Below the pieces are notes generated by a model. It saw only the letters and a program-made list of their open reading frames with translations. It was not told the DNA's origin and did not search any database. A stretch of 62,160 bases of DNA, counting the filler, from Globobulimina sp. (lineage: Eukaryota), in the NCBI GenBank assembly GCA_003354225.1. It is 16 parts of 16 records of this genome, joined end to end, with 100 filler letters (N's around TTAATTAATTAA, not from the genome) between each part and the next. Parts side by side here need not be neighbours in the genome. Positions count along the whole stretch, not along the records: positions 54,489 to 58,275 come from PIVH01002093.1; 15 more parts are not named here. One strand, written 5' to 3'. Within the stretch, counting starts at the first letter, position 1, and each line of letters begins with the position of its first letter. The position numbers and the translations under genes are program-made. This document shows, piece after piece, positions 54,489 through 58,275 of the stretch.

Positions 54489-56205
54489 CATCGGACTAGC
54501 TAGCGGAGATCGAACAGCATCATTAATGGTCAGATCGTGGACATTCAAAATACGAGAAAACTGGTTATGATGACGAGGTGATAGGTTTCGTGGTGACTGG
54601 ACCCGCGGACTGGAAGAGGTATTATCGACATGATGGTGTAATGGATTATTAGTGCTATCACTGTCTATGCGGTAAACACCATCCTTTATCGAAGTGAAAG
54701 TGGTCGCAAACCGTTGTGCTTCCTTGGTAAATAGGGAAGAGTCTGATTGTTGGTCGTCAGACGATGTCGTTACACGGGGGTCAATGTGGTTAGGTTTAAT
54801 ACGAACGGTTGTAATATCTGCATCATTATGATTTGCTCGCTGGCCAATAACAGTAAAAGGAGAGTGGAATATGCGTGGTTGGGACGGAAATGCATGTGAT
54901 ACATTTTCAAAATTGTGGGAATATGACTGGCGAATTGGAGAAGATTCATTGTCGACGAATATAATCTTCGACGGACTGGAGCTGTTTTCGGACGCGGTCA
55001 TTGATTCAATATGTTGTGCGGAATCTGACTGCGTAGAATGATCTGAATGTAATATATAAGGTTTGGGAGATTGCAAATCAAAAACGGATTGGTTGATGGT
55101 CGGATCATCCGTACTTTGCGGGGGAGAGCGGGGACCATTATCGAGAAAATCTAACATATCAACGGTATCGTCGGAGAGCGGTCCATTATCCAACGAATCT
55201 AATAACCGCTGTGTATCATTAACTAAGTCTTGCGTGTCGTCGACGGGCGAAGCGCGTAAATCGACTGCTAAATTATGAATAGATGTATGTGGAGAAGAAG
55301 GGGACTTAATCGGTGTCCGTAAGAAATGAGGAATGGTCTGGACATTTGATTGAATACTGTTGCTGCACCGTGCTTGTTGTGTACCACTCCTATTCAAAAT
55401 ACCATGATTGTAAGTCAGCGACGCTGGAGGATGCGGTTGCGAATTAGCGTCATCACTGCGCTGCAAAGGCACTGGTTGGTGCATGTTAAGGGAATAAATC
55501 TTGTTTAATGCCATCGTTGTTAACGCCGCCTCATTCATGTTATTTTCGTTCAATTTGTCCAGGTTAATACGGGATAAATTACGGCCGCATTTCTTCCGAA
55601 ATTTATGGAGAGTACGAACGTCTAATTCATGGACCAATTTCATACAGTTTAATTCGGCAAAATTCGCGGCATAAATCAAAAATGTCTTATTAATGCGAGC
55701 TAATCGTAAATGTTTCCAGTACAGCTGCGCTAATTTAATCTTGATCGGCACAAATTCGGAACAATTCCTTCAAATAAGCTTTCGCCAAACGGTTAGTCGT
55801 AATACCTAACAGAAAATAGAAGGATTTATTTAAATTGTTGCTATTCAATAATTTGGGTTTGCAAATCTTGCGAAGGTCGAAGATATCGACGTTTTTATGT
55901 TTAAATAATAACAAATTATTAATGTGATGTGTTAATCGCAATATTTTATAATAACATTTACGATAAAGTTTGAGGAGCCGGAACATATTATCCGGGATTG
56001 ATAATGGTGGACTAAAATTAGATAAAGGTTTAACTATGAATTTATCTCTGCACATTTTAGCATTCGAGTATCTTCTCATCGAAAGGGATATATTAATACG
56101 GTGAGGGAGTTTCCTCCATGAATAATAACAGTGATCTACAGATCGGGCGCATCTTAATACTTTGTGGAATAAATCCATTGTATTTGTCCTAATGTTACTA
56201 CGCAT
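54489..56205 (-). CDS. Putative PLE ORF N-terminal region, +1 frameshift near 55750, 3'-truncated
   Basis: ORFs 56205-55735 and 55751-54489 overlap by 17 nt; a basic region is followed by an S/P/D-rich disordered region. Confidence 0.5.
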
Positions 56206-56382
56206 ACTGCCGCGGTATAGCCAAAACTAAATAATCAGGTTCTGAATTCGCTCAATTTATAGAGAATCTAAAGAGAGAAACGATAATCCAGGCGCTGGGA
56301 GAATTTGATTTTTATTTCTTTGTTTTGTGGTGTTTGGTTCTAGAGATGGCTAAGTTTAGAACAGTTTATTTGAGAGTTTAAT

Positions 56383-56421
56383 AACCGACGTTTCGGCAAA
56401 ATTGATGCCTTTTTCGAGGTT
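56383..56421 (-). ncRNA. Minimal type-I hammerhead ribozyme variant
   Basis: AACC-UCGAAAA-A-GGCA-UCAAUUU-UGCC-GAAA-CG-UC/GGUU: stem I AACC/GGUU, stem II GGCA/UGCC, palindromic minimal stem III, GUC cleavage triplet. Confidence 0.75.
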
Positions 56422-56988
56422 TAAATTGAAGTTTAAAGTGTAAAAAGTTTTTGTATTATACAAAAAACTTAACACAAAAAAGTATATACTGTGCAATATA
56501 GGATGTGACAAACAAAACAAAAAGATAGATACAAAAGTAAAAATAAAATATTGGAACTAATAATATGAGAAAAACAAATAAAATATATAGAACCAATCAA
56601 TATAATGCAAATAAACCATATATAAATCGAATAATAGGGTAAAATTTATGATAATATTATAAAATAATAAGCCAAAGGCCCCAAAGGATGCAAAGCGAAT
56701 TTTAAACAAAAATAACATGAAAAAGAAGGAAAATAATATAAAAGGAAATGGCTGACAATAGAACCCAACGAAAGAGATGAAACAAAAGAAAAAAGAAAAG
56801 GAGAGAGAGATGGTTGAGAAATACTGAGAGCAGCAACAAAATAGGCAGTACAGACAAAGGGGCCGTTGGTTAGTAAAAAATACAGACAGATAATATCGAA
56901 AAAATATTTCTAAATATAATAGAGAGAAAATTTGTAAACAAAAAGTCAGATATAAAAAGAAAAAGAAGTATGGGAGGACAAAATCGAC

Positions 56989-58275
56989 TTAATCAACATC
57001 CTCCAATTCACTATACTTCTCATCAACGCCGTGGGCGTCGGAACCAGAGTCAAAATGGCTGTCAAACTGTATGGTATTAATAAAATTCTCAGCAAAAAAT
57101 TGATCATCAATATTTTCAGAATCAGAATCACATGGAATCGTCAGATTTGGTGCGGGCTCATTGGTAGAACCGCCCAAAATATGATCGCGGAAATCTATAT
57201 AGTCCAATCGCTGGGAAACAGGCACCGAATAATTAAATGGATTGCTAATATGATTGTAATTATCCGAGGCATTGGCAATGACCGCTGGGTCTGGATTTAA
57301 TATGTTTGTATCAATGGGTGGCATCGAATTATCAGTAATTGCGGGTGAATTGGTATGATCATCAGATAAATCAGCAGAAGTAATGGAGTGTGGCATGTCA
57401 TCGGTGTTAGACGTTGGTGGACAATGATTAACTGAGATAAAGGATTGGTTGGAAAGATTTTTGAGATATAATGTCAGATCCGAGCGATTAAGGGTATGAT
57501 TGAGGCGATTATGATTAAAATGAGTGTTGGGGGAATTGTTGGGGACATTATTGGTGATATCGGAGGAACCATCGTCGTTCATCACAATATTCTTCATTTC
57601 ATCCAAATCAAAGGGATCGAAGTAAGAATCCGAATCACTAAAACCGGAGGGGTCTGCTGGTGTTGTTGGGGGAGGTTGGGGTAATAACAGAGTTGAGCTA
57701 ACCGCAATATTGTTGACATCCACAGCTTCCAAACGGTGGAACAAAGCCTGGCTTTCAAAATTGAAAATATCCTGAATACCAATCCGTTTTTGTGATGTAA
57801 ATGCTTGTAATCTCCGGATATTTAATTTAAAATTTGATAGGCGGACTGCATCGGAATCAATCATTGCTTGGTCCACTTTATATTTAAAATCCGAGGTAAA
57901 AGTATCAATTTTCTTGAAGTCGCCCATGCCATTCATACCATTATAGACAGAACACATTTGGGCGTGATAATATTTCTCATTGGCACATAAAATCGCTTCG
58001 TTCCAAGAGCGAGTGATCTTATTCGCTTGTCGGAACCCAAAAATACGATAAAACTTCAACGGGTCTTTGCCAGTATGTGTATGGCATTTAGTGCCATCTA
58101 AGCCCGTAAAGTGCAATATATCGCGCGTATAATTGTTATTGAGGAGCGTTGCGATAACTCCTTTTAAAATCACTGAATTATTTTGAATGAGGGCGCCTTT
58201 CGCATCGTAAAATCCTTTCGAATCTAAATCAGAGTAAATGCGACGTATACAATTAATATGTTCATTGTTACGATC
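56989..58275 (-). CDS. PLE ORF C-terminus: GIY-YIG endonuclease C-half plus acidic disordered tail
   Basis: Open from the contig edge: DRNNEHI...HFTG...CH...FYRIFG...RSWNEAIL...YNGMN, matching the RxxEH...H..H...R...E...GxN pattern. Confidence 0.7.
   Translation of the reverse strand, partial: DRNNEHINCIRRIYSDLDSKGFYDAKGALIQNNSVILKGVIATLLNNNYTRDILHFTGLDGTKCHTHTGKDPLKFYRIFGFRQANKITRSWNEAILCANEKYYHAQMCSVYNGMNGMGDFKKIDTFTSDFKYKVDQAMIDSDAVRLSNFKLNIRRLQAFTSQKRIGIQDIFNFESQALFHRLEAVDVNNIAVSSTLLLPQPPPTTPADPSGFSDSDSYFDPFDLDEMKNIVMNDDGSSDITNNVPNNSPNTHFNHNRLNHTLNRSDLTLYLKNLSNQSFISVNHCPPTSNTDDMPHSITSADLSDDHTNSPAITDNSMPPIDTNILNPDPAVIANASDNYNHISNPFNYSVPVSQRLDYIDFRDHILGGSTNEPAPNLTIPCDSDSENIDDQFFAENFINTIQFDSHFDSGSDAHGVDEKYSELEDVD

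Follow-up and report, generated by a model that had tools for sequence, protein, structure and literature searches.

Results

Organization of the locus

The DNA analysed (the window) is a stretch of 62,160 nt from the Globobulimina sp. assembly GCA_003354225.1, a fragmented genome of 70 Mb in 48,370 contigs, and it consists of contigs of about 3.8 kb each with N spacers between them. In the contig that covers positions 54489-58275 (C2093), a 39-nt motif lies in the interval that separates two successive Penelope-like ORFs (Table 1). This position between the end of a GIY-YIG ORF and the next ORF start had been proposed in a preliminary description of the DNA, and it was confirmed; both ORFs align with copies of the same family. 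The upstream ORF (58275-56989) starts inside the GIY-YIG domain, aligns with intact copies over the R..EH, HF, E and GxN motifs and displays 60% identity with the sister copy L059 over 186 aa. An assignment of this ORF to an RT thumb without nuclease was discarded, since the alignment to intact copies shows the second half of a GIY-YIG domain. After the nuclease, the ORF continues for about 300 aa, mostly of low complexity, so that the motif lies about 570 nt past the stop codon and about 1.5 kb past the nuclease itself. The downstream ORF, with its ATG at 56205 and a frameshift near 55741, is the N-terminus of the same element family.

Genome matches were found at 48 places for the upstream ORF and at 21 places for the downstream ORF. 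Contigs C1377 and C862 carry both matches in order, and therefore the window joins the terminal part of one copy to the beginning of another, in support of the Penelope-like tandem junction previously claimed and of a pseudo-LTR. Head-to-tail junctions were present in C2093, C1612 and C2344.

Table 1. Features of the contig that contains the hammerhead motif (window coordinates).
Feature	Position	Strand	Remarks
Next tandem copy, 5' part of ORF, with an N-terminal domain (about 210 aa) and low-complexity sequence behind it	54489..56205	-	ORF truncated by contig end
Conserved CUAGAA and AC-rich tail	56305..56343	-	Dispersed copies end shortly past it, in most cases within AT/TA-rich DNA
Minimal type I hammerhead motif	56383..56421	-	Predicted cut between 56387 and 56386
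Palindromic ACGU in the place of stem III	56388..56391	-	Pairing possible only with a second copy; invariant in 17 copies
Stem II GGCA/UGCC (4 bp, G10.1-C11.1 at base) with 7-nt loop II	56395..56409	-	
Core positions 3-9, UCGAAAA	56411..56417	-	U3:A8 instead of C3:G8, plus U4C
U-rich 3' UTR / pseudo-LTR of upstream copy	56422..56988	-	Putative, from 3' UTR alignment
3' end of element ORF: second half of GIY-YIG and extension of about 300 aa	56989..58275	-	ORF truncated by contig end

Two short words precede the motif. A reversed CCAAT-like word (56590-56601), about 180 nt before it, is conserved among the 3' UTRs (6 of the 8 that were aligned), and a CACAG (56489-56493), partly conserved, follows the U-rich tract about 70 nt before it; from their sequence and position, they are candidates for an internal promoter and for a 3' splice or start site. 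The adjacent contig (58376-62160, plus strand) contains a long ORF with ankyrin-like repeats and WGR/PARP-like motifs, unrelated to the hammerhead.

Anatomy of the hammerhead motif

Read on the minus strand from 56421 to 56383, the motif opens with the stem I strand AACC, which forms 4 bp with the closing 3' strand GGUU. The hammerhead core boxes G5, A6, A9, G12-A15.1, U16.1 and C17 are present and pair 3:8 is U:A, with U3 at 56417, C4 at 56416, A8 at 56412, A9 at 56411 and an extra A at 56410. On the 3' side of stem II follow GAAA, CG and UC, with C17 at 56387, and then the closing strand of stem I. The coordinates and the cut 3' of 56387 given in the preliminary description hold when the minus strand is read, and so do the core UCGAAAA with U3:A8 and U4C, the extra A, the GAAA and the palindromic ACGU, which is replaced by AGCU, also a palindrome, in the sister family. 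The U4 of the uridine turn is absent, C4 being found in the window copy and in two others and U4 in 63 of the 66 matches obtained with the U3:A8 descriptor described below. Since U4C has been described as a tolerated natural variant, its presence weakens hammerhead membership but does not exclude it.

A scan of the window at the Rfam gathering thresholds gave 0 matches. The folding energy alone of the monomer was not significant (z-score -1.3, 20 of 200 shuffles as good), and the ACGU/ACGU helix was not formed in the minimum-energy dimer obtained by cofolding two copies. A tight descriptor found one match in the window, where 100 shuffles gave an expectation of 0.01; as the motif was already in view when this descriptor was composed, the weight of the identification rests on the comparative evidence.

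Copies of the motif in the genome and covariation of its stems

A DNA search with 151 nt around the motif yielded 20 matches among the 20 candidates scored. The search of the whole assembly with a relaxed descriptor, suggested in the preliminary description, also gave a positive outcome, with 66 matches for the U3:A8 descriptor against 0 with the reversed pattern, and 137 matches against 26 in the control for a looser descriptor that accepts both 3:8 states. Among the 100 of these 137 matches that were listed, stem II has at least 3 bp in 91, and 88 of these 91 are palindromic at 15.2-16.2, where the forms CG, GC and AU were found. A count by hand of pair 3:8 in these 88 listed matches gave 50 U:A, 36 C:G, 1 U:G and 1 C:A, the latter in a sequence lacking stem I. 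Stem I is absent from both descriptors, yet it has at least 2 bp in 55 of 59 motifs of the examined loci, and its third pair, unfiltered, forms in 37 of 44 distinct motifs, compared with a mean of 19.7 and a maximum of 29 in shuffles.

In 17 aligned copies of the family of the window, 93% of the cells are paired, compared with 84% in shuffles (none of 500 as high) and 17-63% in slid controls. Stem II is paired in 100% of its cells, with one pair changed from GC to AU in five copies, and stem I in only 81%. Changes on both sides were observed at 5 of the 11 pairs, including 3:8 (13 U:A, 4 C:G); the number of such pairs was not above shuffles (90 of 500), and the copies are related, so these counts are not independent events. 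The stems are conserved among copies, as required by the preliminary description, with covariation of stems I and II and of pair 3:8 in the 17 copies. Decayed copies are also present (L009, L012, L014, L016 and L018-L020). Homologous copies carry at the same place the standard U4, and even the canonical core CUGACGA, with compensating stems. In a nuclease tree of 21 sequences, of which 17 have a linked motif, U3:A8 occurs in the subfamily of the window, in family B and in a Poseidon-like pair, and C3:G8 elsewhere; as read by eye on a tree with some weak inner branches, at least three switches of 3:8 are needed. U3:A8 would represent a compensatory swap. Conservation of sequence is by itself no proof of catalysis, since the tail immediately downstream of the motif is well conserved too.

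The preliminary description considered this type of element invisible to canonical searches. This is correct for the motif, which is missed both by Rfam and by CUGANGA, but not for the family as a whole, because its close relatives use the canonical C3:G8 core and are thus visible to such searches.

The U4C change

The change at position 4 was found in 3 of the 66 U3:A8 matches, all belonging to one subfamily (C2093, C13724 and C34802), and its presentation in the preliminary description as the state of the family has to be abandoned. A loose U4C descriptor applied to the genome produced 25 matches compared with 35 in controls; in the absence of any excess, there is no wider U4C family and UCGANRA cores arise by chance. 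The three U4C copies are 88-90% identical over about 260 nt. They differ in 1 of 39 motif columns, located in the loop, compared with 43 of 280 flank columns (Fisher p=0.017), and show no difference at any of the 32 motif positions outside the loop (binomial p ~0.005), which suggests, in this sample of three sequences, that the C4 motif is still under constraint.

Both single changes of the window motif occur naturally among the variants reviewed by Perreault et al. 2011 (PMC3088659), where U3:A8 is described as a compensatory natural variant and U4C as causing considerably lower activity in vitro, the activity of a viroid hammerhead with U4C being sufficient for infectivity. No report of U3:A8 and U4C together in one minimal, dimer-type motif was found in the literature searched. 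U4C is a change of one subfamily that probably lowers the cleavage rate but would be tolerated.

A different explanation would be that the family motif is a true hammerhead whose U4C version is catalytically dead or nearly so, cleavage being dispensable for retrotransposition and the motif being kept as a protein-binding or promoter-proximal structure, or by recent descent. The confinement of U4C to a single subfamily and its reduced activity in vitro (PMC3088659) are compatible with this, and so is the Anolis element, for which PMC11167929 reports hammerhead mutants without effect on in vitro insertion and no reads ending at the cut site. Against it speak the three copies, 88-90% identical overall yet without change at the 32 non-loop positions, and the U4C viroid hammerhead that is active enough for infectivity, and this explanation is considered unlikely.

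Coding capacity and structure of the element

In intact copies, a single ORF encodes an RT (YRDD/FRDD) and, C-terminal to it, a nuclease of GIY-YIG type. In the sister copies L059, L060, L062 and L063 the RT lies upstream of the nuclease; that of the window copy falls off the contig. The motifs of this CCHH-type GIY-YIG nuclease are arranged in the order IIY-CxxC-YVG, R..EH, HF, E and GxN, and the window ORF begins at R..EH; the insertion between the two histidines comprises about 30 extra residues, and about 65 in family C.

A Pfam search with 7 window ORFs and 5 long element ORFs gave nothing relevant, and both RT and GIY-YIG were missed in 5 of 5 element ORFs; the Pfam GIY-YIG model matched weakly 3 of 17 members (best E 0.054). 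By contrast, a profile of 79 outside Penelope-type nucleases matched 5 of 5 intact copies (E 1e-14 to 1e-17), with no match to the half-domain of the window and none to reversed controls. The AlphaFold model of a sister nuclease (pLDDT 72) was superimposed on I-TevI with Z 7.3, a value in the range below 8 that can reflect a common arrangement, and rmsd 2.1 over 82 aligned residues; T4 EndoII was next, followed by other GIY-YIG nucleases, and 5 of the top 6 structures are of GIY-YIG type. Foldseek with the same model found no match at E 0.001 or better, the best being T4 EndoII (E 0.42). Concerning the RT, a word-based homology search gave 1 match among 4,832 candidates, making a profile search necessary, and the family profile recovered proteins that carry Pfam RVT_1 plus GIY-YIG.

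Three deep families of the element were found in the genome. In family A, overlaps between different copies (L041, L044, L059 and the window) suggest an ORF of about 2,400 aa with two PHD-like fingers. These Cys/His fingers lie upstream of the RT (L059:1419-2300 and the end of the L044 ORF), and their Atlas score of 0.88 is taken as a lead only; PHD fingers have been reported for Chlamys elements (Craig et al. 2021, PMC8557442). In this family, dispersed copies break off soon after the conserved CUAGAA and the AC-rich tail, 30-60 nt beyond the cut site, and by analogy with PMC11167929 this segment is probably the 3' end of the element and the region where reverse transcription would start. Family C (L061 ORF, about aa 1050-1140; P0003, P0009) shows a ZZ-like zinc finger after the nuclease, with a Pfam E of 0.011 that is below the cut-off.

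In family B, L066 is a complete unit, with two motifs 4,347 nt apart in 131-nt direct repeats that are 98% identical. It is inserted in TA repeats with an apparent 16-nt target duplication, seen for this sister family only, and its ORF is split and internally deleted. A TA-rich satellite with a period of about 58/117 nt (L066:4505-4893) flanks this element. In L004, the element end is truncated inside the hammerhead and joined directly to a histone H2A-like fragment (L004:748-1035, minus-strand frame); an insertion into host sequence, or a template switch onto it, is proposed for this junction.

Placement among Penelope-like elements

An RT tree of 146 sequences and 396 columns was rooted on a Poseidon-like element of the same genome. 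Short or over-long matches were dropped (L040, L071 and L086 among them), and the motif labels missed degenerate nucleases. In this tree (FastTree), a clade with support 0.88 unites the family with P0002-P0005 and P0152, and the family sits on a long branch surrounded by unnamed sequences with C-terminal nuclease and linker zinc finger (Neptune-like); as the tree holds no named references, Neptune-like refers here to architecture and not to tested membership. The linker cysteines are present with a spacing other than the Neptune CX2-5CxxC, and Neptune itself has been described as paraphyletic (Craig et al. 2021, PMC8557442). As in Neptune-type elements (PMC8557442), the RT is followed by a Cys-containing linker and by a GIY-YIG domain with CxxC between its motifs and two histidines, and the hammerhead, the tandem arrangement and the TA-rich target (L066) are also shared. 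Differences are the host outside animals and conifers, the RT and GIY-YIG that Pfam misses in 5 of 5 ORFs, the enlarged spacing between the histidines, the modified linker cysteines, the long extensions at both ends and the PHD-like fingers of family A.

Other arrangements do not fit the element. The nuclease follows the RT in L059, L060, L061, L062 and L063, unlike the N-terminal nuclease of Naiad and Chlamys elements, and its fusion within the RT ORF separates the element from the endonuclease-lacking Athena and Coprina and from Terminons, no telomere-like repeats being seen by eye beside the motif. The long element ORFs that flank the motif distinguish it from non-LTR retrozymes, made of non-coding tandem units of 170-400 nt, and there is no second copy of the motif within the window.

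The closest hammerheads described are those of the Cercyon elements of Schistosoma mansoni (Cervera and de la Pena 2014, PMC4209133). That work describes type I motifs in the pseudo-LTR with U3-A8, a base between 9 and 10.1, G10.1-C11.1, palindromic 15.2-16.2 and a short stem I, in mostly solitary copies with many consensus families per genome, and all these traits are found here. However, stem II has 4 bp in the window motif and 7-8 bp in Schistosoma, the host is a protist, and U4C is not mentioned for Schistosoma hammerheads in the sections of PMC4209133 at hand, where the Penelope elements of protists are described as lacking an endonuclease and as carrying hammerheads with a large helix III. 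The Poseidon element PAc of Anolis carolinensis (Frangieh et al. 2024, PMC11167929) shares a hammerhead upstream of the ORF start, an AC-rich tail where copies end and AT-rich targets, but it belongs to a different clade, its core is canonical C3:G8 and its start codon lies within the hammerhead, whereas that of the window element is located about 180 nt past the cut site.

The same assembly contains another group, Poseidon-like and of ordinary appearance, which has a C-terminal GIY-YIG and minimal hammerheads (L080, L081, L084, L086-L089, L091, L129 and L130), with U3:A8 cores in L129 and L130. It also contains Naiad-like ORFs in which the GIY-YIG nuclease precedes the RT (L082, L085, L090 and L092), in whose loci the hammerhead descriptor found no motif.

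Host of the element

A profile of 9 RT-nuclease regions retrieved 9,782 proteins at E 0.001 or better, and 28 of these matches were looked up. Among these 28, seven clusters were named: three from Bolivina argentea, two from Nonionella stella, one from a 'Phycisphaerales bacterium' MAG, which is probably misbinned, and one, more distant, from a Montipora coral. Bolivina argentea and Nonionella stella are Foraminifera, and these relatives give support to the retroelement of a protist lineage that the preliminary description had proposed. In addition, the motif copy L007 adjoins a divergent beta-tubulin gene whose best identities, among the 120 matches listed, were to Nonionella (53%) and Bolivina (46%), the others being 45% or less. 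When the polyubiquitin insertion of Rhizaria was searched for, the matches were all ubiquitin-fusion genes. Numerous unrelated proteins proved to contain a fused ubiquitin domain (L120-L127), and in L122 ubiquitin alternates with Hint-like segments.

The host is probably a foraminiferan. An origin of the same hammerhead and element from an animal (prey, symbiont or contaminant), or from recent horizontal transfer, could be considered given the fragmentation into 48,370 contigs, the ordinary-looking Poseidon-like and Naiad-like elements of the assembly, the position of the RT among Neptune-like sequences, one of which is named as coral, and the close relative filed under a bacterial MAG. Nevertheless, it is made very unlikely by the five named close relatives from two foraminiferan data sets (P0004, P0010, P0032, P0013 and P0021), by the tubulin gene beside a motif copy with its two best identities, among those 120, in foraminiferal sequences, and by the diversification of the element into three deep families in this genome. 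No report of Penelope elements or hammerheads in Foraminifera was found in the literature listings searched, which include few subscription journals and not Repbase.

Discussion

Taken together, the motif is likely to be a minimal hammerhead of type I, carried in the pseudo-LTR of a Penelope-like retrotransposon that is divergent, has a C-terminal GIY-YIG nuclease and resides in a foraminiferan genome. Considered by itself, and as judged from sequence comparison, it is very likely a real hammerhead of an already described kind with one rare core change. A chance look-alike in AT-rich repeat DNA, which would agree with the unremarkable loose U4C descriptor (25 against 35) and monomer z-score (-1.3), is extremely improbable, since 66 matches against 0, homologous copies with U4 or CUGACGA at the same place and, decisively, the covariation of the stems rule it out.

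According to the preliminary description the motif is non-canonical, and U3:A8, U4C and an extra A are indeed present; nonetheless, the Penelope elements of Schistosoma were already known to have U3-A8, the extra base and the palindrome (PMC4209133), and U4C is known from a viroid. The ribozyme variant is largely anticipated by that work, which limits the surprise, and the divergent Penelope lineage in a probable foraminiferan host is the more notable result.

A processing pathway can be proposed for the element, which by analogy may be regarded as ribozyme-processed. Read-through transcripts of tandem copies would carry the motif, and two motif copies would pair through the ACGU palindrome, or a protein of the element itself would assist folding. 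The RNA would then be cut slowly after C17, between 56387 and 56386 as predicted from the sequence, to give unit-length or circularisable RNA, and reverse transcription would start further downstream, within the AC-rich tail, with AT-rich DNA that the endonuclease has nicked as primer. Published activities of such motifs are low: minimal hammerheads of Penelope elements show no activity as monomers and only weak cleavage as dimers (PMC4209133), no cleavage was seen for 8 of 9 Xenopus retrozyme dimers (10.64898/2026.07.22.740005), and the hammerhead of the Anolis element, the one Penelope element tested in vitro, cuts only with the element protein, depends on pair 3:8 and is dispensable for insertion in vitro (PMC11167929). 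Penelope hammerheads are nearly universal, weak in vitro and dispensable for insertion in the one reconstituted system.

C-terminal-nuclease Penelope elements are known, according to PMC8557442, only from animals and from one transfer to conifers. If the host assignment holds, these elements extend to Rhizaria, in a form missed by Pfam and Rfam. A broader proposal, which is advanced tentatively and may well prove wrong, is that Foraminifera own an old, vertically inherited lineage of this kind, a new clade with a Pfam-invisible RT, an enlarged nuclease, PHD-like fingers and ORFs of up to about 2,400 aa, whose hammerheads repeatedly switch pair 3:8 and tolerate U3:A8 with C4 under selection. 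Were it true, it would end the view of the C-terminal-nuclease architecture as confined to animals and would provide a natural series for testing protein-assisted versus dimeric Penelope hammerheads and their role. The genome offers matched natural variants in related elements (C3:G8, U3:A8 and U3:A8 with C4; ACGU and AGCU palindromes) that can be assayed side by side.

The family B motifs (L060:22, L066:66 and others) have a further peculiarity, as A9, an extra U and G10.1 form an AUG, which in the 6 copies translated opens a five-codon micro-ORF in stem II. The Anolis element also begins its ORF at stem II (PMC11167929); in family B, 2 of the 6 copies have the micro-ORF in the same frame as the main ORF, behind stop codons.
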